A stretch of DNA of 64,000 nt from a marine bacterium B5-7 (GTDB lineage Bacteria; Pseudomonadota; Gammaproteobacteria; BQJM01), in contig BQJM01000001.1 in the NCBI GenBank assembly GCA_021604705.1, forward strand, positions 8,276 to 72,275. The letters run 5' to 3'. The notes under the pieces were generated by a model. The model saw nothing but the letters and a program-made list of their open reading frames with translations. It searched no databases and had not been told where the DNA came from. The translations under genes were made by a program, and so were the position numbers. Every line of letters begins with the position of its first letter. The first letter of the stretch is position 1. Shown here piece by piece: positions 3,611 through 20,083 of this stretch.

Positions 3611-3612
3611 GT

Positions 3613-4272
3613 ATGTCGGTTTTACATTATTTTTGGCAAGCAGGGTGGGTTGTTAAATTAGTGATGCTGTTATTACTTGGTGTTTCTGTTTTTTCATGGA
3701 CCGTGATATTTCAACGTAAGCAACATATCAAGCAAATTCGTGAAAAACTTACCGCGTTTAACGAACAGTTTTGGGCTAGCGGTGATTTGACAACATTTTA
3801 CAATACATTGAAAGATAATGCGGATGCGACAGAAGGCTTGGGGCAGATTTTTATGGCGGGCTTTCAGGAGTTTTTACGCGCGAAGCAACAAGCACATATT
3901 ACACCGGAACGCTTAATCGAGAGTGTTCAGCGCGCCATGCATAATGCAGAGGTCACAGTGACTGATAACTTAGAGCAGCATCTATCATTTCTTGCAACGA
4001 TTGGATCGACTGCGCCTTATGTGGGTTTGTTTGGTACCGTGTGGGGGATTATGACTTCATTTCAGGCCCTCGGCGGTGTGCAACAAGCAACGATTGCCAT
4101 GGTGGCGCCTGGTATTTCTGAAGCCTTGGTTGCAACAGCGTTGGGCTTATTTGCGGCCATTCCTGCGGTGGTTGCTTATAATCAACTAATGCAGCAAGTT
4201 GAAAAAATTAATCGTCAGCTAGAAAATTTCCAACGAGATTTTATTAATTTAGTTGGACATCAAGTCCAATAA
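3613..4272 (+). CDS. tolQ: Tol-Pal system protein TolQ.
   Basis: 219 aa, three transmembrane segments, MotA/TolQ/ExbB family features, position upstream of tolR. Confidence 0.9.
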   Translation: MSVLHYFWQAGWVVKLVMLLLLGVSVFSWTVIFQRKQHIKQIREKLTAFNEQFWASGDLTTFYNTLKDNADATEGLGQIFMAGFQEFLRAKQQAHITPERLIESVQRAMHNAEVTVTDNLEQHLSFLATIGSTAPYVGLFGTVWGIMTSFQALGGVQQATIAMVAPGISEALVATALGLFAAIPAVVAYNQLMQQVEKINRQLENFQRDFINLVGHQVQ

Positions 4273-4287
4273 GCGGAGAGTAAAATT

Positions 4288-4719
4288 ATGGCACGTCGAC
4301 GTCGCTTAATGGCTGAAATGAATATTGTGCCTTACATTGATGTGATGTTGGTGTTGTTGGTGATTTTTATGGTGACCACACCCTTGTTAACGCAAGGGGT
4401 GAAAGTAGATCTGCCCCAGGCGCAAGCCAACAAGATTGATTCTACGCAACAAACGCCGATTATTTTAACGGTTGATGATAATGGTAAATTTTATCTAAAC
4501 ACGGCACCACAAACGGATGTGCCATTGATGGATGATAAAATTACGACCTTGGTTTCTCAACAGTTAGCACACGCAAAACAAAAGCATAATACACGTGATG
4601 TGTTGGTGCGTGGAGATGCGCATGTTGACTACGGAAAAGTGGTGAGAGCGATGGTGTTGTTGCAACATGCTGGCGCAGAGACGGTAGGATTGGTCACCAC
4701 TGACACGAAGAAGGCGTAA
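4288..4719 (+). CDS. tolR: Tol-Pal system protein TolR.
   Basis: 143 aa; N-terminal transmembrane segment; ExbD/TolR family. Confidence 0.88.
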   Translation: MARRRRLMAEMNIVPYIDVMLVLLVIFMVTTPLLTQGVKVDLPQAQANKIDSTQQTPIILTVDDNGKFYLNTAPQTDVPLMDDKITTLVSQQLAHAKQKHNTRDVLVRGDAHVDYGKVVRAMVLLQHAGAETVGLVTTDTKKA

Positions 4720-4721
4720 GG

Positions 4722-5555
4722 TTGATGCGCTTGCTGGATTTTCTACGTACTGCCTTAGGCAAGTCGATCTTGCTACACCTGCTGATTATTCTCTTGCTTG
4801 TTGTTAACATCCATTCATTTACCTCATCTACACCACAAGCAACAATGGCTTCAGCACAAAAAGTGATTGTGCATGCGAAAGCTATCACGGAGAAGCAAGT
4901 TGAACGACAAGTCAACGCAGTAAAGCAGCGTAAGCAAGCGATTCAAGATAAAGCACGTCGTCACAAAGTCGCTTTAGCCAAAGCTAAACGTTTGAAGCAG
5001 CAGCGATTGGCCGCGAAGAAACGAAAAATTGCGAAAAAGAAAAAAGCGAAAAAAGAAGCGAAGGCGCGGAAAAAAGCACAAGAGAAAGCGAAAGCCAAAA
5101 AGAAACGAGAAAAAATACTTGCTGAGAAAAAGAAAAAGCAACAAGAAAAGGAACGTGCCTTACAAAAGAAAAAGCAACATCAGCAACAAGAGAAATTATT
5201 GCAGGACCAATTGCAGGCAGAACAAAAAGAGTTGGCTAGTAGTCAGCAGCGCCAATGGAGGACGGTGTTATCCCATTATAAAACCTTGATTACTGCTGCA
5301 ATTTCTTCGCAATGGTATGTGCCAGAGGCTGCCCAACAGAATATGTCCTGCCAGTTTCTTATCCGATTGGCGCCTGGTGGTACCGTTTTGTCAGTACAAT
5401 TGTTAAGATCCAGCGGTAATGCGGCGGTTGATCGATCAGCGCAAGCAGCGGTGTATAAAGCGTCGCCATTGCCGGTACCTAAAGATGCGACTTTATTTAA
5501 TCAATTTCGTGAGATTCAATTAACGGTGCGCCCGCAAACGGTCACCGCAGTATAA
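4722..5555 (+). CDS. tolA: Tol-Pal system protein TolA.
   Basis: N-terminal transmembrane anchor, long Lys/Ala/Glu-rich helical domain, C-terminal TolA domain; gene order. Confidence 0.85.
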   Translation: MMRLLDFLRTALGKSILLHLLIILLLVVNIHSFTSSTPQATMASAQKVIVHAKAITEKQVERQVNAVKQRKQAIQDKARRHKVALAKAKRLKQQRLAAKKRKIAKKKKAKKEAKARKKAQEKAKAKKKREKILAEKKKKQQEKERALQKKKQHQQQEKLLQDQLQAEQKELASSQQRQWRTVLSHYKTLITAAISSQWYVPEAAQQNMSCQFLIRLAPGGTVLSVQLLRSSGNAAVDRSAQAAVYKASPLPVPKDATLFNQFREIQLTVRPQTVTAV

Positions 5556-5566
5556 GGAAATTTAGT

Positions 5567-6865
5567 ATGCGCCAAGTAGTACGGGCTTTTTTGATGATGT
5601 TGTTTGTGGGGGCTGTTGGAACGTCACAGGCGGCATTACAATTGGAGTTGACCCAGGGTGTGGATGCGGCTATTCCCATTGCTTTGGTGCCTTTCGCGGG
5701 TGCAAAAGATGCGCCGACGGATGTGAGTGCCGTGATCAGTGCGGATCTTAATCACAGCGGTCAATTTGCTGTGCTGAGCGCGAATGCTTTTAAACAGGCG
5801 CCTCATGATCCTGATGCGGTGAATTACAGTTACTGGCGTCAACTAGGCGCGAATGATGTGGTTGTTGGGGAGATTAAACCATCAGGTGCTAATCATTTCT
5901 CTGTTACGGTGGCCCTGGTTAGCGTGGCGAGCAAGCATGTTATCTTCAATAAAACGTTCACAGTGCGCGCGAAAAATTTACGTGCATTGTCACATCATAT
6001 TAGCGATCGTATTTATCAATCCTTAACCGGTGTAAAGGGGGTGTTCTCTACACGTATCGCGTACGTGTTGGTACAGCGTGCACCTGGAAAAACGACACAA
6101 TATAAATTAATGGTTGCTGATGCAGATGGGTTGAATGCGCAAGCTATTTTAACTTCACCACAGCCTATCATGTCGCCAACATGGTCTCCGGACGGTACGC
6201 ATGTTGCTTATGTCTCCTTCGAAAACCAGCGATCGCAAATTTATATTTCTGATGTTGCAACGGGCAAGCGTCGATTAGTTTCTAGTTTCCCTGGTATTAA
6301 TGGTGCACCGGCATGGTCGCCGAATGGTAAGCAATTGGCCTTTGTTTTGTCGAAAGAATCGGGAAAAACAAAAGTTTATGTGATGGATATTTCTGATAAA
6401 CAGTTGACGCAAGTGACGACGGGATTGTCTATTGATACGGAGCCAGCATGGGCGCCAGATGGTAAATCCTTAATTTTTACCTCGAACCGTGGTGGTACAC
6501 CGCAAATTTATCAGGTGAGTCTGGCAACAAAACAAGTAGCACGACTTAGCTTCGAAGGGAATTACAACGCGCGACCCGCATTTACACCAGATGGAAAGTC
6601 TATTGTGATGTTACATCGTGAAGAGGGTTTATTTAATATTGCTGTGCAGAATTTACAGACGGGGGTTGTGAGCAACTTAACACAAACGGGCTTGGAGAAA
6701 TCTCCTAGTATCGCACCTAATGGAAAAATGGCATTGTTTGCGTCGCATTTTGGTGGGCGAGGTGTGCTAGGGATGGTTTCCCTTGATGGGCGGATTAAGT
6801 TAAGATTACCGGCTGAGGCGGGAGGCGATGTGCAAGAGCCCGCGTGGTCACCATATTTATCTTAG
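5567..6865 (+). CDS. tolB: Tol-Pal system beta-propeller protein TolB.
   Basis: Signal peptide and repeated SP.WSPDG propeller blades; 432 aa. Confidence 0.92.
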   Translation: MRQVVRAFLMMLFVGAVGTSQAALQLELTQGVDAAIPIALVPFAGAKDAPTDVSAVISADLNHSGQFAVLSANAFKQAPHDPDAVNYSYWRQLGANDVVVGEIKPSGANHFSVTVALVSVASKHVIFNKTFTVRAKNLRALSHHISDRIYQSLTGVKGVFSTRIAYVLVQRAPGKTTQYKLMVADADGLNAQAILTSPQPIMSPTWSPDGTHVAYVSFENQRSQIYISDVATGKRRLVSSFPGINGAPAWSPNGKQLAFVLSKESGKTKVYVMDISDKQLTQVTTGLSIDTEPAWAPDGKSLIFTSNRGGTPQIYQVSLATKQVARLSFEGNYNARPAFTPDGKSIVMLHREEGLFNIAVQNLQTGVVSNLTQTGLEKSPSIAPNGKMALFASHFGGRGVLGMVSLDGRIKLRLPAEAGGDVQEPAWSPYLS

Positions 6866-6877
6866 GGAGAGGATGGC

Positions 6878-7411
6878 ATGAAACAAATCATACAATTGGC
6901 TGGTGTTGCTTGTCTTTGCTTGAGCATGAGTGCATGTTCTTGGTTTATGAATAATGATGATGAAAAAGGTGCCGGTGGGCATGCAAGTATTGTTGAGCAG
7001 GGCGCACAATCTTATGGTGTTTCCGATCAAGCGCAATTTGATGGTGAAGATGGCGAGTATGGTTTTACTGATGGTCGTCCCAGCAACCAAACGTTTTACT
7101 TTGCCTTTGACAACAGTAAAGTGAATACACAGTACGATGCAAATCTAACAGCACAAGCCAATTATTTAAAAGATCATCCTAATGTTAATGTGCGTTTGGA
7201 AGGTAATACCGATGAGCGTGGATCACGTGAGTACAATATTGCATTGGGTGAGCGTCGTGCTTTGTCGATTGCACGTTATTTGGAAATACATGGTGTACCT
7301 AAGCAGCAACTATCGATCATTAGTTATGGCGCAGAAAAGCCTGTTGTTTTAGGGCATGCAGAATCTGCGTACCATATGAATCGTCGTGTTATGTTGAAAT
7401 ATCCAGATTAA
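6878..7411 (+). CDS. pal: Peptidoglycan-associated lipoprotein Pal.
   Basis: Lipobox LSMSAC, OmpA-like C-terminal domain (NTDERGSREYNIALGERRA). Confidence 0.92.
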   Translation: MKQIIQLAGVACLCLSMSACSWFMNNDDEKGAGGHASIVEQGAQSYGVSDQAQFDGEDGEYGFTDGRPSNQTFYFAFDNSKVNTQYDANLTAQANYLKDHPNVNVRLEGNTDERGSREYNIALGERRALSIARYLEIHGVPKQQLSIISYGAEKPVVLGHAESAYHMNRRVMLKYPD

Positions 7412-7423
7412 AGTTTAGAAGGG

Positions 7424-8242
7424 ATGAAGCGCATGAGAACTTATCTTATTGCAACGGTGATCGCCGCATGGTTACCATTCAGTTTTGCAGATGCACCTGT
7501 CGTGGATGCGTATAGCCAAGGTATGGCTGCACCGATAGCACAACAACAATTTGTGCAGCGTGACGATGTGGTTGATGAGGATGATGATTCGCCGGTGGCG
7601 GCCACACCAAGTGTGGACGTTGCTGCACATCCCGCTCCGAGTTTGTCGACACAAAGTCAACTGCAACTTTCAACGCGATTGGATCAACTAGAGCAGCTGG
7701 TACAAACTTTACAAGGGCAACTGGAAGTGCAAAGCCATACGCTTGCACAATTGCAGCAGCAGTTAAAGTCTGGTGAGCATGGGGACGTAACAGCAGCACC
7801 AAGTGTCGCGACAACGACGCCAACTACCCAGCAAACCCAGGATGCGCAAGCGGAATTAAAAGCGCAAATGGTTTATCAGGCGGCCTATGATGAAATCCGC
7901 GCACGTAATTACGCGCAAGCTATGCAAGATTTACAGGCCTTTACAACGACTTATCCTCATAGTCGTTTAGTGCCTAATGCGGAGTATTGGATGGGTGAGT
8001 TATATTTGTTGCGTGGCGATAGTAAAAAAGCGATGGCAAAATTGACCAAAGTGGCAAGCGAATATCCACAGCATCCCAAAGCAGCAGATGCCTTATTCAA
8101 AGTGGGCTTAATTGAGGCAGATCAGGGTAAGTGGACGCAAGCAAAGCAAATGTTGCAACAAGTTGAGCAAAAATACCCCGAATCTAGTGCTGCACAATTG
8201 GCCAGACACCGTATGACCGAGTTGCGTCAGCAAGGTCATTAA
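7424..8242 (+). CDS. cpoB: Tol-Pal associated protein CpoB/YbgF.
   Basis: Signal peptide, coiled-coil, C-terminal TPR-like region; position after pal. Confidence 0.8.
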   Translation: MKRMRTYLIATVIAAWLPFSFADAPVVDAYSQGMAAPIAQQQFVQRDDVVDEDDDSPVAATPSVDVAAHPAPSLSTQSQLQLSTRLDQLEQLVQTLQGQLEVQSHTLAQLQQQLKSGEHGDVTAAPSVATTTPTTQQTQDAQAELKAQMVYQAAYDEIRARNYAQAMQDLQAFTTTYPHSRLVPNAEYWMGELYLLRGDSKKAMAKLTKVASEYPQHPKAADALFKVGLIEADQGKWTQAKQMLQQVEQKYPESSAAQLARHRMTELRQQGH

Positions 8243-8303: not shown

Positions 8304-8379
8304 GGGCCGTTAGCTCAGTCGGTAGAGCAGTTGGCTTTTAACCAATTGGTCCCGCGTTCGAGTCGCGGACGGCCCACCA
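8304..8379 (+). tRNA. tRNA-Lys (anticodon UUU).
   Basis: Cloverleaf GGGCCGTTAGCTCAGTCGGTAGAGC...anticodon loop CTTTTAA...GGTTCGAGTC, CCA encoded. Confidence 0.9.
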
Positions 8380-8481: not shown

Positions 8482-10251
8482 TTGTTGTTGTCAGGGAGAT
8501 TGCTTGTGATCCGTACGAAAAAAACTGTCTTATTTGGCTTTGCTACGGCGTTATCCGTTAGTTTGTTATCACCTATTGCATTGGCTGCACCTACCACCGC
8601 GAAGCCGGTAGCAAAAAAAGTCGCTGTGAAAGCAGCAAGCAAAGCACCAACCAAGGCAGCAAGCAAAGCACCGAACAAGGTAGCAACTAAAGCAAAGCCA
8701 GTAAAAATGATGAAGGCGACCAAGGGCGCTACGCTGGGTGGTAAAATCCCTCACCTATTACAAGTCGATAATCGCATTAAAGCCGCCTGGAATGATTTAG
8801 AGGCCGATCGCTTTGGTATTCACAAGGCGGTGGGTGAGTACTTGCCAAAATTTGATATCACGCTTGACGAAGGTCGCCAACGCCGGACAACAACGACAGA
8901 AGATACGGATTGGCCGACTAACAGTCAGAAATTCGAAGTGACTCAGTTAGTTTATGACTTTGGTAAAACCACCTCAGATATTAAAACGGCGGAAGACGTT
9001 TACAAAAAATCTAAAGTGAATTACAAAAGTGTTCGACAAGATACGATGCTAGATGGTGCAACAGCGTACTTACGTTTGTTAGGCGCTTACGAAACCTTGA
9101 GTTATGCCTTACGTTACGAAGGCAATGTGGGTAAGCAGGTACGTATGGAGCAAGTGCGTCGCAAGCGTGGCTCAGGTTACTCTACTGATGTCTTAGAAGT
9201 TCAGGCACAATTGTCAGGTGCGAAAGCACGTGTATCACGGGCACAGGGAGCATTGGTGAATGCACAAAATGCTTATCGCCGTACTTTCCATGAAACGGCC
9301 ACAGAATTATCGACGTTTGCGATCCCTACCTTGCCAACATCTAGTTTACCAAAAACAAAAGAGGCGGCCATTGCGATTGCCTTGCGTACAAATCCAGACA
9401 TCCAGAAATTAGAGTATGACATTAACATTGACCGCGCAGCGGTGACTGCGGCAGCTTCTGAATTTGCACCATCTATTGATTTAAAAACCACAGCAGATTA
9501 TCAGCATGATGTGAGTGGTGTGCAGGGGCAGAAAAAAGAATGGACGACAGAAGTGGAAGCGACTTATCCGTTGATTAATGGTGGGTCCGATATTGCTGCA
9601 TTGAAAGCAGCGCATTTCCGTTTAGCAGCAGATCAGCAGCGCTTAGACGATCAGCGTCGTGTGACAGAAGAAGAAGTGAGCGATGATTGGGATGGTTGGC
9701 AGACTTCCTTAGAAAGTGCTGTTTACTTGAAGCAACAATCTGCGCAATTAAAAACATTTGTTAGCTTGGCAGAGAAAGAGCGTCGCATGGGCCGGAAAGA
9801 CTTGTTGGCGGTGTTAGTTGCTGATAGTAATTACATTAATGCGATTAGTGACAGTGTGGATGCGCAAGTCAATGTCGCGATTGATACTTATACTTTGTTA
9901 CGACACATGGGTGTGTTGAATGAAACAATGTTTGTTAGCCCAAAGAAATCGCAACATTTTGAGAAAATGGTTCAAGACAAAATTGTCGCTAAGCAACAAG
10001 CAAAGAAAAAAATGATCCAGGCGAAGAAAGCGGCCGCAGTTGCAGCGGTTGGACCGACTACGCATAAAAACACGAGAGTGAATACAGTTAAGCAACCTTG
10101 GCACACCTATACGCGACCAAGTCCTGCCGCCAAGCAAGCAGCGAAAAAATCAATGAAACAAAGTCAGTTGAAAGCACCGCAGCCAGTTGTTGCTGCCAAG
10201 CATCAGCAACATGCGGCAGCAACAACGGTGAAGAGTTTTGATTGGATTTAA
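8482..10251 (+). CDS. TolC-like outer-membrane efflux factor of the linked type I secretion system, with atypical Ala/Lys-rich N-terminal repeats and a basic C-terminal extension.
   Basis: Signal-peptide-like N-terminus. Central part has outer-membrane-factor-like composition and coiled helices. Operonic with the ABC and HlyD genes. Start codon is uncertain (a GTG near 8506 is possible). Confidence 0.6.
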   Translation: MLLSGRLLVIRTKKTVLFGFATALSVSLLSPIALAAPTTAKPVAKKVAVKAASKAPTKAASKAPNKVATKAKPVKMMKATKGATLGGKIPHLLQVDNRIKAAWNDLEADRFGIHKAVGEYLPKFDITLDEGRQRRTTTTEDTDWPTNSQKFEVTQLVYDFGKTTSDIKTAEDVYKKSKVNYKSVRQDTMLDGATAYLRLLGAYETLSYALRYEGNVGKQVRMEQVRRKRGSGYSTDVLEVQAQLSGAKARVSRAQGALVNAQNAYRRTFHETATELSTFAIPTLPTSSLPKTKEAAIAIALRTNPDIQKLEYDINIDRAAVTAAASEFAPSIDLKTTADYQHDVSGVQGQKKEWTTEVEATYPLINGGSDIAALKAAHFRLAADQQRLDDQRRVTEEEVSDDWDGWQTSLESAVYLKQQSAQLKTFVSLAEKERRMGRKDLLAVLVADSNYINAISDSVDAQVNVAIDTYTLLRHMGVLNETMFVSPKKSQHFEKMVQDKIVAKQQAKKKMIQAKKAAAVAAVGPTTHKNTRVNTVKQPWHTYTRPSPAAKQAAKKSMKQSQLKAPQPVVAAKHQQHAAATTVKSFDWI

Positions 10252-10309
10252 TGCGGTATCTGTTATTAGTTCGCCTGCATGTTGAGGCGTAAAAAGGAAA
10301 GACTGACCC

Positions 10310-11962
10310 ATGGATGAGTTTTTTGTTCGCCTCAGTGCGCGAAAAGGATATGCGATAGAGTTGATGTTGACATCACTCTTTGCAAATCTACTTGCGCTTG
10401 CCAGCCCTCTCTATGTGATTCAAATTTTGCAGCGTTATGTTGCGAATGGTGTTGATGGTACCTTAGTCACACTGACTGTTGGTGTGGTCATTGCCATTAT
10501 CTTAGAATTTCTCTTTCGTATGTTACGTAATCGTTTAGCTTCCGCGGTAAGCTTGTATGCCGATCATGTGTTGGCAACGCGCATTTATTCTATTTTTAAC
10601 TGCGCGAAGTACGATCATGTGAATAGAATAAACAAAAGCGTGCGACAAGAGTTAATGCACAGCCTAGATATGATTCAGAATGCGTATAGCGCACAGAATA
10701 TTTGTACCGTACTGGATTTACCTTTCGCGGTTTTATTTCTATTGATGATTACCTTATTAAGTCCTTGGCTAGCATTAATTGTTTGTGTGGCCATTACCAT
10801 CAGTGTGCTGATGGGGTGGTTGGGGCAACGGCCGATTTCGGGACAAAGCAGAGAATTAAACGAAACGAATATTGCCAAAAACAGTTTAGTTTCTTCTACC
10901 ATTGAGAATGCAGATACGATTCGATTGTTTAATGCCTGGCCTCAATTGCAAAAAGCTTGGGATACCATTACTGGCAAATCTCGTGAATTACGCACTTGGT
11001 TGGAAGGGTACCGTGGCGCATTACAGAATGCATCACAATCTTTGACGGCATTAATGACGGTTGCCATTTATGCGGTGGGTGCCAGATTAGTGGTCGGTGG
11101 GCATTTTGATATTGGTGTCTTAATCGGTACGAATATTTTAGCGGCTAGAGCGCTGATGCCGATGTCACGCTTCGCACAGATGGGTGATAGCTTAGTGCGT
11201 GCACAGCAAGCAGAGCAACGCTTAGCAGATTTGCAACGTTTACCCTTGGAGTTAGTGCGAGGTACGGCAAAACGTAATTATACGGGAAAAATTGTTTTTC
11301 ATGATTGTGCTTTTCAGTATCCTGACATGCCCATGCCTTTGTTTGAATCTCTGTCACTGGAATTAACGCCTGGCAGTATCGTTGCGATAAAAGGCCCGAA
11401 TGCGGCGGGTAAAACCTCCATGGCCAAGCTATTACTTTCTTTGATGGAACCCACACGCGGACAAATTCTTGTTGATGATATTGATCTTCGTCAAGTTTCT
11501 GTTGTTTGGTGGCGTCAGCAAGTGAGTTATTTGCCGCAAGATCTTGCGTTTATGAATGCGAGTTTGCAAGACAATTTAATTGTGACTAATCCTGAGACTG
11601 CGCCGGATGTGCTAAATAAAATGATTGAATTAGCCGATCTTCGGGAATTTATTGATAGTAGTGCCGAAGGCTTGAATACACGCTTGAATGATCACGGCGA
11701 TGCTTTATCGCATGGTATTCGAAAACGGATTGCATTGGCGCGTGCGCTGATGACGCAAGGTAATTTAGTGATCCTGGATGAGCCCATGGATAGCTTGGAT
11801 GAGCAAGGCCAAGCTGCAGTGGTGAATGTCCTTGAGGCACTGAAGCAGCAAGGTAAAACGATTTTATTATTTGGCAACGACGAAAAAACGGTAAATTATG
11901 CAGAAACCATTATCGACCTCTCAAAAAAACCAGTCCCAACGGTTACAAAAACAAACGCTTAG
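10310..11962 (+). CDS. Type I secretion ABC transporter ATPase/permease (PrtD/LssB-like, no N-terminal C39 peptidase domain).
   Basis: Six-TM-like N-terminus, Walker A GPNAAGKTS, ABC signature LSHGIRKRIALARAL, Walker B LVILDEP. Confidence 0.85.
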   Translation: MDEFFVRLSARKGYAIELMLTSLFANLLALASPLYVIQILQRYVANGVDGTLVTLTVGVVIAIILEFLFRMLRNRLASAVSLYADHVLATRIYSIFNCAKYDHVNRINKSVRQELMHSLDMIQNAYSAQNICTVLDLPFAVLFLLMITLLSPWLALIVCVAITISVLMGWLGQRPISGQSRELNETNIAKNSLVSSTIENADTIRLFNAWPQLQKAWDTITGKSRELRTWLEGYRGALQNASQSLTALMTVAIYAVGARLVVGGHFDIGVLIGTNILAARALMPMSRFAQMGDSLVRAQQAEQRLADLQRLPLELVRGTAKRNYTGKIVFHDCAFQYPDMPMPLFESLSLELTPGSIVAIKGPNAAGKTSMAKLLLSLMEPTRGQILVDDIDLRQVSVVWWRQQVSYLPQDLAFMNASLQDNLIVTNPETAPDVLNKMIELADLREFIDSSAEGLNTRLNDHGDALSHGIRKRIALARALMTQGNLVILDEPMDSLDEQGQAAVVNVLEALKQQGKTILLFGNDEKTVNYAETIIDLSKKPVPTVTKTNA

Positions 11963-13292
11963 ATCGGTCTGGCGTTGGTTGTTGGGTGAGCCATCTGAAG
12001 AAGATGGCGAGGGTAGCCTGCGCGTTGATGACGTCAAACGCGGGACACACTTATTCCTAGCCTTATTGGTTGCATTGTGTGTTTGTTTCTTGTTATGGGC
12101 GGTCTTCGGGCAGCTCGATATTGCAAGCCTCGCGCAAGGCGAAGTCGTACCAAGTTCTAAAATAAAACATGTGCAACATCTAGAAGGTGGGATTGTTAAA
12201 AAAATCTTGGTGAAAGATGGTGAGAAGGTGACGATGGGGCAACCATTAGTGGTGCTAGAGTCGACGGCTTCTGGTGCGGATGTGCATCAAATACAAGTAC
12301 AGTTAGCCTCGTTAAAACTGAATCAAGCACGTTTAAATGCAGAACTGAATGGCTTAGATACGCCGAATTTTCCATTGGATTTAGTTAAGCAGCACCCTAG
12401 GTCGGCTGAGCAAGCGAAAAAGCATTTTGATTTTAGGATGAAGAACATTAAAAATAAAAAAACCAGTCAGCATGAACAGGTTGAACAGCGCGAAGCGGAA
12501 CTTGAAGAAATCAAAGCACGGTTGAATAATTTGAAAAAGGCCTTAGTGCTTTCGAAGGAACAAGTCACGATTTCTGAAGAATTGTTAAAAGAAGATTTAA
12601 CCAACCGTTACAATCACATTGATTTATTGCGTGAGTCGAATGCGTTAGAAAGTCGCATTCAAGAAGACACCGCTGTGTTGAAAAAAGCAGAATCGACATT
12701 GAGCGAAGAGAAATCAGATTTATCGGGTATTGATAATACGTTCAAAGAGGACGTTACTAAAAGCTTGACGGAAACACGACAAAAAATTAATGAGTTGACG
12801 CAGCAGTTGGCAAAATATAGCGACAATTTACAGCGTACGACGATTATCTCACCGGTTGAAGGTGTGGTGAAAGAGTTATTTGTGAGTTCAAGAGGGCAGG
12901 TCGTCAAAGCGGGTGAAACCGTGTTAGATATCATTCCTTCTGGTGATCAACTTGTGATTGAAGCGCGCTTGCCTGTGCAAGATGTGGGTTATATTGAGGT
13001 AGGACAGAAGGCTATTATTCGTTTAGCATCTGGCGATGCGACACGCTTTAATCATCTAGAAGGTGAGGTCGTATTTATTAGCCCGGATACCATTACTCAA
13101 CCAGAACAAGATCCTTATTACCGTGTGCGTGTGGTCACGGAAAGTGATCACTTTAAAGGGCGTGGATTGAAATACCAATTGTATCCCGGTATTCAGGTGT
13201 CTGTAAGTATTATCACGGGTTCACGTTCTATTATGGCTTACCTCTTAGATCCATTTATTGGCGCAATGCGTACCGCGTTGAACGAACGTTAA
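11898..13292 (+). CDS. HlyD-family periplasmic adaptor (membrane fusion protein) of the type I secretion system.
   Basis: Single N-terminal TM, long coiled-coil, C-terminal beta domain; overlaps the ABC gene end by about 65 nt. Confidence 0.8.
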   Translation: MQKPLSTSQKNQSQRLQKQTLRSVWRWLLGEPSEEDGEGSLRVDDVKRGTHLFLALLVALCVCFLLWAVFGQLDIASLAQGEVVPSSKIKHVQHLEGGIVKKILVKDGEKVTMGQPLVVLESTASGADVHQIQVQLASLKLNQARLNAELNGLDTPNFPLDLVKQHPRSAEQAKKHFDFRMKNIKNKKTSQHEQVEQREAELEEIKARLNNLKKALVLSKEQVTISEELLKEDLTNRYNHIDLLRESNALESRIQEDTAVLKKAESTLSEEKSDLSGIDNTFKEDVTKSLTETRQKINELTQQLAKYSDNLQRTTIISPVEGVVKELFVSSRGQVVKAGETVLDIIPSGDQLVIEARLPVQDVGYIEVGQKAIIRLASGDATRFNHLEGEVVFISPDTITQPEQDPYYRVRVVTESDHFKGRGLKYQLYPGIQVSVSIITGSRSIMAYLLDPFIGAMRTALNER

Positions 13293-13310
13293 GAATTCGC
13301 ACAAAAAAGG

Positions 13311-13336
13311 GCCCCAGGGGGGCCCAACTGCAAGGA
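13311..13336. terminator. Hairpin GGGCCCCAGGGGGGCCC preceded by an A-run. Terminator for the convergent RTX gene and a weaker one for hlyD.
   Basis: Seen in sequence between the convergent genes. Confidence 0.6.
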
Positions 13337-13346
13337 AAGACTAGGG

Positions 13347-16300
13347 TTAACCACCACCATCAGTGAAGACGTTTGCATTTAAGTCGTTAACGTTATTGCT
13401 CAAGTTGTCAGACTCGATGGTTGCGGTGACATTTCCTTCTGAATCTTTAAAGATGATTTGTCCACCTGATAAATCATTGTCTTTACCATCATCTGTTGAG
13501 AAAAAGCCCTCTAAAGTAACGGAATTTCCCTCAGAATAGGTGAGCACCAAATCATTTGCATCTTCCTGTGATAAGCTCGCAGTGATTTGTCCTTTCGTTA
13601 AGCCAATAAACGTCACGTCATCTTGGCCATTATTATAAGCAGCTGAAATCGTATCGTTTCCGAAGTCACCTTCAAAAATAAAATTATCGTCGCCAACTTC
13701 AGCAGTTTCTGAAACAAGACCCGTGAAGGTATCGTTGTTTGCACCATCTCCGTTACCAGTACCTGCAGGACCACCTAGATAAGCGACGCTATCTTTTGTT
13801 GCATCAGCCCAAGGGTTACCACTGCCGAGTTCTTGATTGACTGTTTCAAGGCTGCCATCGTAGTCAAAAGAGCCATCAGCAATTTTACTCCGAACACCAT
13901 TTTCACCAAAGAAGTCTAAAATGGTGATAACGTTATTATCTTGGTCGCCTGCAAATCTTAACTCAAGGTGGTTATTGTCTGGGCTAGAAAACGCTAAGAT
14001 ATCTGCGCTGCTGTTTGCTCCGTGGAACAGTAGGTTGTGTCCTGTGCCTGTCGATAAATCTAAGGTGATGTTACCGATGTCGCCATCAAGAAAGTTGATC
14101 TCAATAGTTTCATTGTCACCATTGGTTTCAAATGTTCGATCGTTGTTATCAGGTGCTGCGCCAATTTCTACGTCGGGAGCTCCCTGTTGCTCACCTTCAC
14201 CTTCACCTTGTGGTTCACCACCGCCGTTACCTTGATTTATATCTAATATATCCTGAGGAAGATTGCTTGGTTGAATGTATTCAAGGTTGTCAGGCACTTC
14301 ACTATCAGTCGCGCCTAACCAAGCGATAGTGTTAGCATCTCCCATGTTATTACTGTCAGGAATGATGGTTAATACTTTTAGCGCTGAATGCGTTGGTGCA
14401 TTGGCATCTTCTGCTGAGTAATAATTTTTGAATGTCACACTAGTATTGGCGTTGCCATAGGTGAAGACTAAGTCATGAGAGTTCTCACCGCTTTTTGTTG
14501 CACTCAGGTCGCCGGGTAGGATGTTGAGGAAATTCACGTTAATCGTGCTACCGACAGTCTGTGGGTTAATCGTGATATCGCCAATGTCGCTGGAGAAGTC
14601 GATGTTAAAAGTGTAGTTGCCATCAGCATCGTCACGTGCCTCCACCGTGTCATCGTGACCAATGTTTACCGTGAAGGGTTCGCTTGGCTCTGGGCTTGGC
14701 TCTGGAGTTGGCTCTGGAGTTGGCTCTGGGCTTGGCTCTGGGCTTGGCTCTGGAGTTGGCTCTGGGCTTGGCTCTGGTTCACCAAGTTCTTGGTTTGCTT
14801 CTATTTGCGTGGCGACTTCTGCCAAGGTTGCGGTTGAGTCATCTTGGAAAGTAAACGTCAAACCTTGATGATCCTGTGCATCATCAATACTAATGCTGCT
14901 ACCATCGCTAAAGAAAATAGTTTGACCGCCATCTTCATTGTTGTTAACCGACTGTAGATCTGAAATATCTCGATCTGCCAAGTCAATGGTATCATTACCA
15001 GAAGACTCTTCTGAAAATTGGAAAGCTTTATTGCCAAAATTACCGCTTAAAATAATGGTATCATCACCTTCTCCGCCAATGATGGTATCATCACCCGCGC
15101 CGGGTATAATGGTGTCGTTACCCTCACCACCAATGATAATGTCAGCGCCAGATGTACCCGTGATAGTATCATTACCATTACCACCGACAAGAAAAGTACC
15201 GCTGTGACTCTCAGTGGGGGTGAAGCCGCTGTAATCAATCGTACTACCACCATCTTCAGCTAGCACAATAATTTGTGTGCTACCCTCAGGACGACCACCT
15301 TCAGTAAAATTATTTTCCTCTGTGATGTTAATAGTGGTATCGTTGAGAGTAAAGAATATCTTATCAAGTGCTGCTGTATTGACAGTGAGTGATGGGTCTC
15401 CCACTACGTCACTGGGGTCTAAACCATTAAAGACTTCGATTGTTTCACTATTATCTGCACCGCGCGTTAATACGAATTGATGGTTATCCCAGTTTTCAAA
15501 CAACACGGTGTCATTTTCTCCAAGACCATTAATGTCGATATTGCCAGACACAACATCTTTTTCAATCGTGAATACGTGATTGTCTTCAGTACTCGTATAA
15601 GTCGTTGCCTCTAAAATCTTTGTTGAGTTTTCTTCATCGATGACGACCTCTTGGAATAAACTTTCTAAGTTTTGTATGCCGGCTCTAAAATAATCACCAG
15701 GGTTATAGTGAGAAGAGCTATCATGATCATCCCAGCGATCTTTGTCATTGTCTTCTCTCTTAAGGTAATGATCTTTCATGTCTTCGAAATAGTGATCTTT
15801 ACTCTCGAATTCTGTTTGGATAAGTTTACCTGCGAAGTCGCCAAGGGTGTTGTAAAGATCATCCAAGAATGGCATTGGCTCAAAGCCTATTTCGCCAGGA
15901 TCCATACCAGGCGGCATCCAAGGGAGATCTCCTTCTATGCCGGGACCCATACCAGGATTCCAAGGTTCATGTCCGCCCATGCCCATACCCATACCAGGAT
16001 TCCAAGGTTCATGTCCGCCCATAGAAGGATCCCAATGAGGTTCTCCAGACTCTCCAAAGAATCCGCCTTTCTGAATCATATCGGTCATGCCGCCTTTGAA
16101 AGGATCAAAGCTCGCATCGAACCAATCGTCATTGCTATGTTGCCAATTAGCATCGCCGGGCATAAAGCCTTTGTGATCACCGGGCATATGATTAGACATC
16201 ATGTCGTACAGAGCTTTCGAACCCATATTCATGTCATGGGTCATACCTTCCGGCATGTTTGTCATCATGTCGTGGAACTCAGGGGGCATATTATCCATGT

Positions 16301-16889
16301 AATCATTTGTATATTGATTCGCAAATTCATGCGCAAGCGGATCCAAGTTTTGCATGAAGTTATTTTTCATGTGAGTCTGGAATTCTGGCATGTTTTTTTC
16401 GAACTGTTCTCTGAATTGATCTGCAAACTCAGGCATCTCATTTAAGTCTATCTTATGTTTTTCAGCGGTTTTTGTGAGTGCTTGATTAAATAAATCGTCT
16501 ACCGTTTTTTCATTAAACATGCCGTCCACAGTGTTCCATGCGGCTTCTTTGATATCATGCGCGGCTTTATTGTGAAGGTTTTGCATGAAGGCAGGTAATT
16601 CTGTTGCATCAGCATCACCAGCAGTCGTCGGCGCATTGTCTACATTCGCTTCAGCATGTTCCGCAGGTGCTTGACCAGCTTGGGGGTGTTCGCCTGCCTG
16701 AGGCGCTTGTTCCTTAGCGATGGGTTGATCTTCGTCGCCGTGGATTTCATTAGTTGCCGCATTATCATGGGGCTCTAAATGTTCTTGAGGCCCAAGTTGA
16801 TGGTCATCAACATCTCGATCATTCGACACCTTGTTATTTGCCGCATTGTTGTTTGCAGCACCAGTGTTGTCTTGCTCAGCCATGATCAT
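13347..16889 (-). CDS. Large RTX (repeats-in-toxin) calcium-binding protein and probable type I secretion substrate. Acidic N-terminus, Met/His/Pro/Gly-rich segment, GGxGxD nonapeptide block, (PEPS/PEPT)n linker, C-terminal repeated beta-roll-like modules.
   Basis: GGNGNDTITGTSGADIIIGGEGNDTIIPGAGDDTIIGGEGDDTIIL (aa 568-615); EPEPSPEPTPEPSPEPSPEPTPEPTPEPSPEP (aa 703-737); Met-rich aa 160-345. Convergent to the T1SS genes. The SD AGGAGA abuts the first ATG, so the ATG 6 nt downstream (about 16883) is the more likely start. Confidence 0.85.
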   Translation of the reverse strand: MIMAEQDNTGAANNNAANNKVSNDRDVDDHQLGPQEHLEPHDNAATNEIHGDEDQPIAKEQAPQAGEHPQAGQAPAEHAEANVDNAPTTAGDADATELPAFMQNLHNKAAHDIKEAAWNTVDGMFNEKTVDDLFNQALTKTAEKHKIDLNEMPEFADQFREQFEKNMPEFQTHMKNNFMQNLDPLAHEFANQYTNDYMDNMPPEFHDMMTNMPEGMTHDMNMGSKALYDMMSNHMPGDHKGFMPGDANWQHSNDDWFDASFDPFKGGMTDMIQKGGFFGESGEPHWDPSMGGHEPWNPGMGMGMGGHEPWNPGMGPGIEGDLPWMPPGMDPGEIGFEPMPFLDDLYNTLGDFAGKLIQTEFESKDHYFEDMKDHYLKREDNDKDRWDDHDSSSHYNPGDYFRAGIQNLESLFQEVVIDEENSTKILEATTYTSTEDNHVFTIEKDVVSGNIDINGLGENDTVLFENWDNHQFVLTRGADNSETIEVFNGLDPSDVVGDPSLTVNTAALDKIFFTLNDTTINITEENNFTEGGRPEGSTQIIVLAEDGGSTIDYSGFTPTESHSGTFLVGGNGNDTITGTSGADIIIGGEGNDTIIPGAGDDTIIGGEGDDTIILSGNFGNKAFQFSEESSGNDTIDLADRDISDLQSVNNNEDGGQTIFFSDGSSISIDDAQDHQGLTFTFQDDSTATLAEVATQIEANQELGEPEPSPEPTPEPSPEPSPEPTPEPTPEPSPEPSEPFTVNIGHDDTVEARDDADGNYTFNIDFSSDIGDITINPQTVGSTINVNFLNILPGDLSATKSGENSHDLVFTYGNANTSVTFKNYYSAEDANAPTHSALKVLTIIPDSNNMGDANTIAWLGATDSEVPDNLEYIQPSNLPQDILDINQGNGGGEPQGEGEGEQQGAPDVEIGAAPDNNDRTFETNGDNETIEINFLDGDIGNITLDLSTGTGHNLLFHGANSSADILAFSSPDNNHLELRFAGDQDNNVITILDFFGENGVRSKIADGSFDYDGSLETVNQELGSGNPWADATKDSVAYLGGPAGTGNGDGANNDTFTGLVSETAEVGDDNFIFEGDFGNDTISAAYNNGQDDVTFIGLTKGQITASLSQEDANDLVLTYSEGNSVTLEGFFSTDDGKDNDLSGGQIIFKDSEGNVTATIESDNLSNNVNDLNANVFTDGGG
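14688..14782. repeat. Tandem 12-nt DNA repeat (CTTGGCTCTGGG/GTTGGCTCTGGA, about 8 copies) encoding the PEPS/PEPT linker of the RTX protein.
   Basis: Seen directly; the plus-strand ORF GSGLGSGVGSG is its mirror artefact. Confidence 0.85.
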
Positions 16890-17087: not shown

Positions 17088-19556
17088 GTGGGTCACGACG
17101 CTACTAAAAAGCAGAAAAAACAGGTGAGACTGCGGAAGCTTGAGCATTATGCAAAAGAAGGTGGAGAACCTAACCTCGAGCCCATCGGCCTTCCTCTGAA
17201 AACGCTAAGAGAATTAATTGATAAGCATTACTCGGCCAGTGCTCGCAGGTCTCATAGCTCTTCTAATCCTTTGTTGGCTAGCGCGAAGTTGTACCAGGAT
17301 TGGAGTGCCAAGGGAGAACTCGAGTTATTGGCGTTCATATTGCTATATCATCCTGATAACCATGATTCACAAAAATCTTTCCTTGAAAAATGTCAGGAGC
17401 TGGTGCTGCAGGATATTCAAACCTGCATATTGGCGCTTGAAGCTGATCCTAATACTAATACCTCACTGGCAAAACAGATAAGCGGTATAAAATCCTTGTA
17501 CAACGATCACGATGGTATAAGCGCATGCTATGAATACCTGAGCAAATTACAGGGGCGAAAAATATATTGGACGTTTAGCGGTGGGGCTGATAAAGAGGCT
17601 GCTAGTAGAGCGTTGGTTTCGTCCATTCACACCAAGCTCGGCCTCAATGAAGAGGTAACAACAGCAGAATCTACGTCGTTAGCTGAATTAACACCGCTGT
17701 CCGATGTAGCAAGACACTGGCGGTACTTGCTGAGATGGGTGAAAAAACTCGATAAGAACCTAGATGCTTTATGGACAACTGGTTTGCTGCAAGAGTCCGT
17801 GCAGAAACGCATTGTGCCTTGGCGTAACCAGCTGCATGAGATGCTTGATGAAATGCATGGCTGTTTACTCGAATTAAAATATAACGCACTTTCTGTGCTG
17901 AGGCCTATGCTGGAGGAATCTGTTGAGGCGTTAGGCCTGAAGCCTGAGCAACCTTTCCAAAAAGATTTAAAGCGACTAAGTTCTGACGCAAGCAAGTTTT
18001 ATGTCGCCTATATAAAAGCAAAGCGTATCCACCAACAATATCTTTCCAAAAAAGCAGAGCTGGCATCATGTCAGGACACTTCTAAGCGAGATATTTCGTA
18101 TCCAGCCACTGATCTTCAGATTGAGGAACTTGAGTGTGCGCTACAGCGGGACGAATACAAAAATAGTGAGAAGCAGCTATTGCTTGCAAAGATCGATTTA
18201 CTTCCCTATGCTGAGCAATGCCTTGCGTTTGAGAAATCAAGAACGCGCGTAACTAAGATATCTTTCTCATCGAAGGATAATGCTTGGGAAAAAATAGAAA
18301 AATCCCTGAAAGCCATTACCGCGAAGAAACTGATTATTGATGTACTCAATCTTGACGCAACGACAATGCCTGATCGAAAACAATACCTCGATAAAATTTG
18401 CAGAGGAATAGAAAATGGTTCTCACGTGATAGGTGAGGCAATACGATGGGTTATTGAAAACAGTCCTTGCGTACTAGATGATGCTCGCCTCACTCATTAT
18501 GCAGAATATATCTACGGCGGCAGGGCGGCGGCATGCCTTGGCGCAGAGATTCACTGGCCTGCCAGCTTTGATCCAGCGTCATCTATCAACTTCATCAAAT
18601 TGAATTTGCAACACGCAATGAAGCTGCGTGAGAAAGTGCTTCTCGACAGTGCGCTTGCTGTCTCGTTGGCGGATCAAAGTTGTTTGTACCATCAGCTGAA
18701 TGAGATGGAAGCCCCAGAGGGAGATGATTTGTTCTATAGGAACCAAGCTAAGATCGAGCCGAAGGTCTTAGCGTTGGAGGATGTGTCAGCACAGATTAAG
18801 GTGCTCTCGACAACTATTGAGTCGCACACTAAGCTGGCTTTGAAATGGCAACTTCAGTATGTTCGTCAGCGGAGAATGCAGCTTGGGCAGCAGCATCAAA
18901 GTGACGATCAGACGCTAAGGCAAACACCTGCACAACAGGAAACAAGTGAGGAGCAGAGGCTTCCATCACAGGAAGAAGCTCACGAACAGACGCAGCAAAC
19001 ATCTATGCCGATGTTAGAGCAACAGCAACAGCAACAGCAACAGGAAGAAACGCCCGAGCAAACGCAATACAAGCAGCGCTTGCAATCGCTATTACAGGCG
19101 GGTCTAAAAAGCCTGAGAAAATATATCACCAGTCGGGATTATTATGATGAAAACGGTAGCCTTACATGGTTAGGTTTTTGGAAAGGGGCTTGGCTGCGGA
19201 ACACCATACTCACGAAAGCGAAATTGAAATTGGCAAAATCAGCTGTTGGAACACTGACTTCATTGAGCGAGGGTGACACCGCTGAAACCTTGGCGAAGAC
19301 GATCCACAACACGTTTGAGGACTTAAGCACAAAACATACCACGCTTGAGCATGATGGCCCCGAGGATTCGAGTGAGCACAACTTGACCGGTTGTTGGGCT
19401 TTTTGGTCCGCAAAACGGTGCGGCGCTAAGCCTTACCATCGCGCGTCCTTTTTCGCTACGAGCCATTTAGGGCGATTGACAGCAGAAAATCTCAAGCAAG
19501 CTCGGGCGAATATGCCCCAAGACACTACTACAGCGCCTTATACCCCCACTGGCTGA
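17088..19556 (+). CDS. 822-aa hypothetical protein with a polyQ tract (QQQQQQQQ) and helical/coiled regions. Candidate secreted effector, divergent from the RTX gene.
   Basis: Long ORF, GTG start with upstream GGTGGGGG RBS, no recognisable enzymatic motif. Confidence 0.55.
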   Translation: MGHDATKKQKKQVRLRKLEHYAKEGGEPNLEPIGLPLKTLRELIDKHYSASARRSHSSSNPLLASAKLYQDWSAKGELELLAFILLYHPDNHDSQKSFLEKCQELVLQDIQTCILALEADPNTNTSLAKQISGIKSLYNDHDGISACYEYLSKLQGRKIYWTFSGGADKEAASRALVSSIHTKLGLNEEVTTAESTSLAELTPLSDVARHWRYLLRWVKKLDKNLDALWTTGLLQESVQKRIVPWRNQLHEMLDEMHGCLLELKYNALSVLRPMLEESVEALGLKPEQPFQKDLKRLSSDASKFYVAYIKAKRIHQQYLSKKAELASCQDTSKRDISYPATDLQIEELECALQRDEYKNSEKQLLLAKIDLLPYAEQCLAFEKSRTRVTKISFSSKDNAWEKIEKSLKAITAKKLIIDVLNLDATTMPDRKQYLDKICRGIENGSHVIGEAIRWVIENSPCVLDDARLTHYAEYIYGGRAAACLGAEIHWPASFDPASSINFIKLNLQHAMKLREKVLLDSALAVSLADQSCLYHQLNEMEAPEGDDLFYRNQAKIEPKVLALEDVSAQIKVLSTTIESHTKLALKWQLQYVRQRRMQLGQQHQSDDQTLRQTPAQQETSEEQRLPSQEEAHEQTQQTSMPMLEQQQQQQQQEETPEQTQYKQRLQSLLQAGLKSLRKYITSRDYYDENGSLTWLGFWKGAWLRNTILTKAKLKLAKSAVGTLTSLSEGDTAETLAKTIHNTFEDLSTKHTTLEHDGPEDSSEHNLTGCWAFWSAKRCGAKPYHRASFFATSHLGRLTAENLKQARANMPQDTTTAPYTPTG

Positions 19557-19641: not shown

Positions 19642-19723
19642 GGAGGGGTGCCCGAGTGGTTAAAGGGGGCAGACTGTAAATCTGTTAGCTTCGCTTACGT
19701 AGGTTCGAATCCTACTCCCTCCA
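19642..19723 (+). tRNA. tRNA-Tyr (GUA), long variable arm.
   Basis: GGAGGGGTGCCCGAGTGG...anticodon loop ACTGTAAATC...GGTTCGAATCC. Confidence 0.85.
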
Positions 19724-19778
19724 TTTTGCTTTTTTTAGGCAAAAAAACAGCGGAAAAAGTGAGTTGTTTGCTTGTTAT

Positions 19779-19852
<74 letters not shown>

Positions 19853-19908
19853 ATAGCGAGTGGTGTCGTGGGTTAGGGATGACGAATGCAGAGCGTTTGT
19901 CGCGCCTA

Positions 19909-19981
<73 letters not shown>

Positions 19982-20007
19982 CAACGCTTAGTGGGGCAAA
20001 CAAGTTT

Positions 20008-20083
20008 AGGCCAGTAGCTCAATTGGCAGAGCGGCGGTCTCCAAAACCGCAGGTTGGGGGTTCGATCCCCTCCTGGCCTGCCA
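20008..20083 (+). tRNA. tRNA-Trp (CCA).
   Basis: AGGCCAGTAGCTCAATTGGCAGAGC...CTCCAAAAC...GGTTCGATCCCC, CCA encoded. Confidence 0.85.

Follow-up and report, generated by a model that had tools for sequence, protein, structure and literature searches.

A predicted type I secretion locus with a putative RTX-type cargo and a methionine-rich passenger in marine bacterium B5-7

Results

Gene content of the locus

We analyzed a stretch of 64,000 nucleotides (nt) from the metagenome-assembled genome (MAG) of marine bacterium B5-7 (GenBank assembly GCA_021604705.1, contig BQJM01000001.1, positions 8,276 to 72,275; hereafter the window) for a predicted type I secretion system (T1SS), along with the large protein encoded beside it. 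The locus spans positions 8482-16889 of the window and holds four long open reading frames (ORFs). Three are co-directional on the forward strand and encode an outer membrane factor (OMF, 8482-10251, 589 amino acids [aa]), an ATP-binding cassette exporter (ABC, 10310-11962, 550 aa) and a membrane fusion protein (MFP, 11898-13292, 464 aa); the fourth, convergent with them on the reverse strand (13347-16889, 1180 aa), encodes the putative cargo. An earlier note, made from the letters of the window, had described this arrangement of three co-directional genes and a convergent substrate gene, and both the coordinates and the hidden Markov model (HMM) matches agree with it.

The OMF matches PF02321 with 152 bits (cut-off 22) and TIGR01844 with 212 bits, slightly below the cut-off of 225. 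The ABC protein joins PF00664 (64.7 bits) to PF00005 (93.8 bits), the transmembrane and nucleotide-binding domains of a half-transporter, and is identical in sequence to the NCBI entry DHS20C10_00210 of marine bacterium B5-7, while the MFP is matched over the full length of TIGR01843 as an HlyD-family periplasmic adaptor (402.5 bits, cut-off 208.65). That the three genes make up a self-contained T1SS is supported by these HMM matches together with the operon layout. The 589-aa form of the OMF begins with TTG, gene callers choosing a 581-aa start at 8506, and for the MFP they choose 436 aa from 11982. Lys/Ala/Pro-rich tails lie after the OMF signal peptide (about aa 36-80; 8587-8721) and at the C-terminus (about aa 497-589; 9970-10248), so that the Ala/Lys-rich repeats noticed earlier at both ends are indeed present; the N-terminal tail includes a 24-nt repeat of 2.6 copies (8632-8694, forward strand; Tandem Repeats Finder, TRF). 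OMFs of distant relatives are shorter (423-488 aa), and one possibility is that the basic tails contact peptidoglycan or the envelope.

Among the NCBIfam models, the three best scores of the ABC protein were for LssB (360 bits), PrtD (TIGR01842; 287 bits over the full length, cut-off 510) and HlyB (246 bits), all below the curated cut-offs. The alignment begins at position 144 of 696 in the LssB model and at position 138 in the HlyB model; E. coli HlyB is aligned over residues 153-679 only (192 bits), Aquifex PrtD scores 147 bits, and the ORF has no room for an upstream extension. Because the match to LssB starts at 144 and that to HlyB at 153, the exporter carries neither a C39 domain nor a C39-like domain (CLD) at its N-terminus. 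Its architecture is that of the appendix-less AprD/PrtD class, the third class of T1SS, with a core that scores best on the LssB model. The earlier label of a 'PrtD/LssB type' lacking C39 is right about the missing domain and inexact in its second half, as LssB itself carries a LapB-type CLD (PMC6959600). Appendix-less systems typically export smaller substrates (PMC6959600).

Architecture of the putative cargo

The cargo is a protein of 1180 aa and 127 kDa with an isoelectric point of about 4.05, no cysteine and 223 Asp and Glu against 43 Lys and Arg residues. Its highest 19-residue Kyte-Doolittle hydropathy is 0.81, leaving no hydrophobic or Sec-like segment; a pore-forming RTX toxin was rejected on this ground, and no acyltransferase gene was found among the locus and flanking ORFs examined. 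A Shine-Dalgarno sequence, AAGGAG, stands 7 nt upstream of the second ATG (16883), and the protein therefore probably starts at residue 3 and has 1178 aa.

We derived the layout of the cargo, all of it encoded on the reverse strand, from composition, internal BLAST and two single-sequence AlphaFold2 (AF2) runs of low confidence, with a mean predicted local distance difference test score (pLDDT) of 40 for the whole protein and 49 for aa 97-427, too low in both cases to assign a fold. An N-terminal leader rich in Ala, Asn, Gln, Glu, Pro and His (aa 1-96, 16602-16889; pLDDT about 30, no secondary structure) is probably disordered and without a Sec signal. It is followed by a region modeled as helices (aa 97-232, 16194-16601; pLDDT 58-82 for aa 97-196), a low-complexity region of Pro, Gly, Asp, Met and Trp (aa 233-340, 15870-16193; pLDDT below 50, no secondary structure), acidic helices (aa 341-415, from composition and AF2) and a beta-rich region (aa 430-568, from composition, internal BLAST and AF2). 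Five RTX nonapeptides (aa 569-613, 15051-15185) then form a putative Ca2+-binding beta-roll core, with a beta module behind them (aa 614-690), a PEPS/PEPT linker at about aa 702-737, three further modules at about aa 738-855, 906-1000 and 1061-1135 with G/E/Q-rich spacers between them, and a C-terminal tail (aa 1136-1180). The probable secretion-signal region (aa 1050-1180, 13350-13742) runs from a degenerate RTX remnant through the last beta module into the tail.

The nonapeptides read GGNGNDTIT, GTSGADIII, GGEGNDTII, PGAGDDTII and GGEGDDTII, with a strict GGxGxD in three of the five, and PF00353 is matched with 31 bits by the whole protein and 40 bits by a sub-fragment (cut-off 23). TRF found three repeats in the gene: a 27-nt repeat that encodes RTX units (15051-15134), a 12-nt unit present eight times with 90% matches that encodes the (EPxP)n linker (14682-14777, about aa 705-736), and a 42-nt unit present twice that encodes the GGHEPWNPGMG duplication (15937-16022). 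A second repeat search (find_repeats) also returned the 12-nt unit. By internal BLAST, aa 747-853 align to aa 1061-1171 with 31% identity (E = 4e-11), and further matches join aa 608-689 to 1066-1158 and aa 730-818 to 873-964, giving five related beta modules. The tandem nonapeptides, the repeated beta-roll-like modules towards the C-terminus, the 12-nt repeat behind the linker and the GGHEPWNPGMG duplication had all been pointed out in the earlier note, and each of them was recovered here. The RTX block and the module behind it (aa 614-690) seem to duplicate, within the protein, the C-terminal unit, in which only a degenerate RTX remnant is kept ahead of the last module. Pfam gave the beta modules, the last one included, only sub-threshold matches to BapA_N, HCBP_related and LapA domains.

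The cargo has no described relatives: the full-length protein found none among 5.8 billion proteins beyond one weak RTX match (E = 1.3e-4). Sequence look-ups had no record of the exact 1180-aa or 1178-aa sequence, Foldseek with the AF2 model returned nothing from the PDB below E = 1, and PADLOC gave no matches. Logan and European Nucleotide Archive (ENA) assemblies contain the same strain at 99.99-100% identity. The short-read Logan contigs stop exactly inside the 42-nt and 12-nt repeats, one of them at 14711, so the copy numbers of these repeats rest on a single MAG assembly.

Conservation of the locus in a related species

The collections held one related species, ENA ERZ23497388 (L010), in which we compared one orthologous locus. 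Its gene order is tolA-tolB-pal-cpoB-tRNA-Lys-OMF-ABC-MFP, then a convergent 1255-aa gene, then rpsL. Identity to the window is 73% for the ABC, 76% for the MFP and 62% for the full-length OMF, and 64%, 58% and 50% for TolB, Pal and CpoB. The OMF of L010 (3980-5728) ends in KSFDWI as does that of the window, and its tails are conserved in kind. Since L010 has the same layout, the T1SS and its cargo appear to be ancestral at the cpoB-tRNA-Lys site. The position between tRNA genes had earlier been called island-like, and this idea was dropped: the same site is occupied in L010 (flanks 50-64% identical), GC content is flat across the locus (0.42-0.47), a repeat search of the 64-kb window found no second copy of the tRNA-Lys 3' end or other att-like repeat, and the ORFs and Pfam matches of the locus and flanks include no integrase or mobility genes.

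The two cargoes are 51% identical over their last 125 or so aa and at most 27% identical elsewhere, the 27% falling in the RTX area (E = 3e-10), where the RTX block of the window cargo aligns to the C-proximal RTX block of that of L010. Both C-terminal segments contain SGGQI(I/M)F and, near the end, DLN(A/S)(N/S)VF. Outside this part the likeness is one of type, as both proteins lack Cys, are strongly acidic and have a polar leader, low complexity rich in Gly, Pro and Asp, acidic linkers, beta modules and RTX repeats. Where the window cargo has PEPS/PEPT linkers, that of L010 has GQGE and EQEQ linkers. The cargo gene adjoins the transporter genes in both species, and a conserved C-terminus beside a divergent passenger and transporter proteins of 62-76% identity fits a C-terminal T1SS signal region. 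This contrast between C-terminus and passenger is just what a C-terminal signal region predicts, and nothing else available speaks as strongly for the convergent RTX-type protein next to the transporter genes, proposed earlier as the likely substrate, being the cognate cargo; on these sequence comparisons we consider that assignment quite probable. Searches with the C-terminal cargo alignment against the protein collection and Joint Genome Institute (JGI) metagenome contigs, and with the OMF alignment against the metagenome contigs, found nothing.

The methionine-rich stretch

Residues 160-345 of the cargo (15855-16412) contain 25 Met in 186 aa (13.4%), against a background of 2.48% taken from another 20 genes of the window (P = 1e-11, binomial), and are also enriched in His (5.4%) and Trp (3.2%); outside aa 102-371 the cargo has three Met in 910 residues. 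The densest part, the 38 residues of aa 198-235 (16185-16298; MDNMPPEFHDMMTNMPEGMTHDMNMGSKALYDMMSNHM), has 11 Met and 3 His and overlaps the C-terminal end of the helical region, extending three residues beyond aa 232. A segment rich in MxxM, MxM and HxxM motifs, suggestive of a copper site, had been described here. The enrichment in Met is real, while the motifs are no more frequent than composition predicts: in 5000 shuffles of the segment, MxxM, MxM, HxxM and MxxH had means of 3.2, 3.2, 1.3 and 1.3, with 3, 3, 1 and 3 observed, and the combined [MH]x1-3[MH] count was likewise not above composition. In the same shuffles only M-x3-M was mildly raised (6 against 3.2 expected, P = 0.07).

In the first half of the stretch, Phe, Met, Leu and Tyr recur at an unbroken spacing of 3-4 residues through aa 152-220, with hydrophobic-moment z values of 2-3.2, which suggests short amphipathic helices with an apolar face made of two kinds of residue, one of them Met. 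Prolines return every 16-17 aa within N/E-MPEF units (EMPEF, NMPEF, NMPPEF and NMPEG; aa 150-232), and aa 154-176 are 46% identical to aa 188-211 by internal BLAST. The second half repeats MPGD, DPF and PWNPGMG units. In the AF2 run on the fragment, aa 211-340 had a pLDDT below 50 and no secondary structure, and the full-length run was alike for most of this span; aa 233-340 are probably disordered on these models. Among the short Met-containing units, MPEF occurs four times and MPGD and PWNPGMG twice each, and the enrichment is best explained by Met in generic hydrophobic positions together with the amplification of such units. An antisense ORF of 257 aa rich in His, Ile and Phe (15672-16445, forward strand) lies opposite the Met-rich coding stretch; as a gene it was rejected, since the Met/His-rich codon composition on the sense strand almost certainly brings it about as a by-product.

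No known family accounts for the stretch. Pfam searches allowing E up to 10 gave chance matches only (XPG_I_2, DUF2884), NCBIfam gave no match, a PDB sequence search returned only MCM2 at an E of about 0.5, and a full HMMER search with aa 101-420 against 1.84 billion representative proteins returned a single spurious low-complexity match (E = 2.7e-4). Literature searches turned up no relevant work on RTX or T1SS proteins rich in Met. The L010 cargo carries tandem (A/G)PGDF pentapeptides at this position, with 17 Phe and no Met between aa 201 and 300; over aa 100-400 its Met content is about 3%. What similarity is left between the two proteins, such as that of FDASFDPF to YDPSFDPNF, does not reach significance (E 0.14-0.19). 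Because the sister lineage writes the same region with Phe in PGDF repeats, Met looks like a variation in composition and not like a metal site that has been conserved. The 'Cu-site-like' description of the segment thus comes down to composition, given the lack of any copper-family match and the PGDF array of L010.

A wider family of appendix-less exporters

At least 873 proteins of the 5.8-billion collection are related to the ABC protein at E <= 1e-50. With the exact match and the 73% relative set aside, the best 120 of these at least 873 are 550-643 aa long, 41-47% identical to it and without an N-terminal appendix. Their source organisms are Rhodospirillales, other Alphaproteobacteria, Methylococcales or other Pseudomonadota MAGs. 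A scan of genome contigs with the ABC protein found relatives of at most 42% identity on short contigs, with no cargo gene on the stretches covered; JGI labels distant relatives 'LapB'. In three family loci (L012, L013 and L014) the OMF gene lies just 5' of the ABC-MFP pair, with the cargo gene between OMF and ABC-MFP in L012 and a small 150-aa ORF there in L013. Judged from such sequences, these exporters belong to a T1SS family that is common, though uncharacterised, and has the order OMF-ABC-MFP.

Some family loci have large, Cys-free, acidic neighbors with low-complexity arrays of Gly, Asp, Pro and Phe, like the window cargo. That of L012, where the ABC is 45% identical, is a 1366-aa acidic, Cys-free and Pfam-less protein with a GGDPF array (3419-7519, forward strand), and a contig of JGI 3300072015 carries a 1400-aa acidic, Cys-free and Pfam-less neighbor of a family ABC. 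These cargoes share no detectable sequence with that of the window, none of the examples seen is enriched in Met, and a cargo gene does not always adjoin the transporter. The comparison suggests that a tract of Gly, Asp, Pro and an aromatic residue recurs in the cargoes of this family. The passenger appears to keep a composition (Gly, Pro and Asp plus a bulky hydrophobic residue) and not a sequence, with Met as the local choice.

Flanking genes and other features

Between the two convergent stop codons lies an intrinsic-terminator-like hairpin, GGGCCCC-CCT-GGGGCCC followed by a T-run (13309-13325, reverse strand), with seven G-C pairs and the top rank among the terminator-like sites of the region. 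Upstream, ARAGORN placed tRNA-Lys(UUU) at 8304-8379 on the forward strand, the conserved neighbor of the T1SS locus. On the other side, an orphan ORF of 822 aa with a poly-Gln run (17088-19556, forward strand) adjoins the cargo gene and diverges from it. It has no Pfam, NCBIfam or PADLOC match above threshold and is missing from the syntenic L010 locus, in which rpsL comes directly after the cargo gene; it may be an effector-like gene particular to this lineage. A cluster of tRNA-Tyr, tRNA-Gly, tRNA-Thr and tRNA-Trp follows (19642-20083) without tufB between tRNA-Thr and tRNA-Trp, which are separated by 26 nt. The large ORFs from 20491 onwards, judged by size and order only, we take for the secE-nusG-rpl-rpoBC block. 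After the cargo gene of the window thus come the orphan ORF, the tRNAs and these large ORFs, and after that of L010 directly rpsL-rpsG-fusA (13061-16109); these differing orders point to a rearrangement of the region 3' of the cargo gene in the history of the two lineages. The locus is flanked by tol-pal, the tRNAs, the orphan ORF and what we take for ribosomal and rpoBC genes, and by no cop, cus, pco or sil genes.

Elsewhere in the 64 kb, three paralogous ORFs encode AAA_14 plus DUF4143 ATPases (176-1507, 53063-54238 and 59612-60745), the first of them split into two ORFs in an ENA assembly (L002) that differs from the window by a single gap. A 235-aa ORF at 51929-52636 (forward strand) matches the F-box families PF12937 (40.6 bits) and PF00646 (29.8 bits), and a 179-aa ORF at 62098-62637 (reverse strand) matches the ankyrin-repeat family PF12796 (65.8 bits). 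Eukaryote-like domains such as F-box and ankyrin are typical of bacteria that live inside protists or other eukaryotic hosts, and from these two ORFs the B5-7 MAG may be host-associated.

Discussion

The locus is most simply read as a chromosomal, vertically inherited and dedicated T1SS with its cognate cargo in an uncultured gammaproteobacterium, and the Met-rich stretch as a lineage-specific low-complexity and amphipathic region without a dedicated metal site. To each of these two statements, which we draw from sequence comparison, we give a probability of about 0.6. Several points weigh against them. With 11 Met and 3 His among its 38 residues and Asp close by, the cluster at aa 198-235 equals recognised Mets motifs in density. 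In vitro, short peptides rich in Met are ligands of Cu(I) and Ag(I), and by analogy the cluster likely has some affinity for these ions in vitro, whatever its biological role; because such peptides bind them anyway, binding in vitro alone would not establish a function. Only one orthologue was compared, and the replacement of a module in one lineage is no proof that it is functionless in the other. The disorder assigned to the second half of the stretch is read from low-confidence single-sequence AF2 models, and the export, Ca2+ binding and C-terminal signal role of the cargo are all putative. The canonical RTX block also lies about 570 aa from the C-terminus, an unusual place in an RTX cargo, though the last module does have a degenerate remnant ahead of it. 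In RTX cargoes the non-cleaved C-terminal secretion signal comes immediately after the repeats (PMC6891781).

A true Cu(I)/Ag(I) module, delivered by the T1SS to buffer or scavenge copper outside the cell, for example in a host vacuole, would account for the strong enrichment in Met, for the dense cluster, for the added His and Trp and perhaps for the mild excess of M-x3-M; the F-box and ankyrin ORFs hint, on our own reading, at a host association in which copper stress is plausible. The motif counts within composition argue the other way, as do the lack of similarity to any copper family or structure even at E up to 10, the Met-poor PGDF arrays of the orthologue, the flanks free of copper-resistance genes and the position of the Met residues of aa 152-220 on a hydrophobic stripe, interleaved with Phe. 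We therefore regard a copper module as distinctly unlikely. In its most specific form, the cluster and the PGMG units would act together as an extracellular Cu(I)/Ag(I) sponge on an RTX scaffold against copper poisoning by a host; the F-box and ankyrin genes do suggest, from their sequences, a life inside a protist, and we find the sponge itself very unlikely. The same hydrophobic stripe could instead be a functional surface, the Met/Phe-faced, Pro-punctuated helices of aa 150-232 binding a host protein, a lipid or another partner, so that Met would be adaptive without binding metal. Met-rich grooves, as in the SRP54 M domain and calmodulin, and the Pro-punctuated helices of apolipoproteins offer models. 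The unbroken 3-4 spacing over about 70 residues, the regular return of the MPEF units, the helices modeled with a pLDDT of up to 82 and the suggestion of a eukaryotic host from the F-box and ankyrin genes all agree with such a surface. Its polar face, however, is acidic or neutral with few Lys and Arg, unlike class A lipid-binding helices, the module is missing from the L010 orthologue, no homologue or fold match was found, and the single-sequence model reaches only moderate confidence. We hold a functional hydrophobic surface to be unlikely.

A third alternative concerns the whole system, which might work as a two-step adhesin of the LapA/RtxA type, with an N-terminal retention module holding the cargo at the cell surface until a LapG-like protease releases it. 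The order OMF-ABC-MFP is that of lapEBC, the ABC core scores best on the LssB model, JGI gives distant relatives the name LapB, and the last cargo module has weak, sub-threshold matches to BapA_N and LapA. The exporter nevertheless lacks the CLD that defines transporters of the LapB/LssB type (PMC6959600), the first 96 residues of the cargo are predicted to be disordered with no folded retention module, and no BTLCP/LapG or LapD-like gene flanks the locus in the window or in L010. Within the reach of the window and L010, a retention system was rejected for these reasons, and we hold it to be highly improbable.

A dedicated T1SS with a fast-evolving passenger would work as follows, the steps from recognition onward being drawn from established T1SS and RTX biology (PMC6891781, PMC6959600). 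A dimer of the appendix-less ABC would join the HlyD-type adaptor and the TolC-like channel in a tripartite conduit, and the ABC/MFP pair would recognise the cargo of 127 kDa by its conserved C-terminal 125 or so residues. The chain, free of Cys, strongly acidic and for the most part unfolded, would then leave C-terminus first through the channel, and extracellular Ca2+ would fold the RTX nonapeptides and the five beta modules, driving export in one direction, with the PEPS/PEPT and G/E/Q linkers serving as extended spacers. The N-terminal passenger (aa 1-415) would come out last; we picture it as rapidly evolving and lineage-specific, made up of a disordered leader, Pro-punctuated helices faced with Phe and Met, and a probably disordered tract of Pro, Gly, Asp and hydrophobic residues. 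By analogy, the whole cargo is most likely a secreted or surface-exposed, Ca2+-stabilised factor of an adhesin-like or host-interaction kind.

What the locus adds is one more T1SS dedicated to an RTX-type orphan cargo, in a gammaproteobacterium that is uncultured and probably associated with a host, and the cargo's conserved C-terminus and divergent passenger in two species are a clean comparative pointer to the secretion-signal region. It also draws attention to an abundant, uncharacterised family of appendix-less ABC exporters that appears to handle very large cargoes, against the textbook link of this class to small substrates, and whose cargoes repeatedly carry low-complexity arrays of Gly, Pro, Asp and hydrophobic residues. 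As a remote possibility, such arrays with Phe or Met (PGDF, GGDPF, PGMG) might represent a new class of cohesive, secreted, disordered domains. Were the Met-rich version to bind copper, which the evidence does not favor, RTX scaffolds would gain their first passenger of a metal-sponge kind; we know of no such function described for RTX proteins.

Among known systems, the Mets-motif proteins (CueO/CopA/PcoA, CusF, SilE/PcoE and Ctr1) resemble the stretch only in local composition, Met with His or Asp as in HDMMTNMPEGMTHDMNM. The stretch shows no sequence or domain similarity to them, has motifs at the frequency set by composition, is not conserved in the orthologue, has no link to copper-resistance genes and is part of a T1SS cargo instead of a protein of the periplasm or membrane. 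Closer are AprDEF/AprA of Pseudomonas aeruginosa, PrtDEF and HasDEF, being tripartite systems encoded with their cargo, whose ABC proteins of the AprD/PrtD/HasD class likewise lack an N-terminal C39 domain or CLD; RTX nonapeptides with an uncleaved C-terminal signal region (putative here) are also as in the AprA class. Unlike these systems, which have the order ABC-MFP-OMF, the window has OMF-ABC-MFP; its ABC reaches 287 of the 510 bits of the PrtD cut-off and scores higher on the LssB model; and, where Apr, Prt and Has cargoes are typically small (PMC6959600), the window cargo has 127 kDa, no enzyme domain and its canonical RTX block in mid-protein. The other near relations are LssB/LssD-TolC with RtxA in Legionella and LapEBC with LapA in Pseudomonas. 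From these the locus is set apart by the missing CLD, the missing N-terminal retention module, the absence of a LapG or LapD gene nearby and a cargo with no detectable homology to RtxA or LapA beyond the RTX repeats. What it has in common with them is the top HMM score of the ABC core on the LssB model, the gene order of lapEBC, a large, repetitive and acidic RTX-type cargo and, with Legionella, an organism that probably interacts with a eukaryote.

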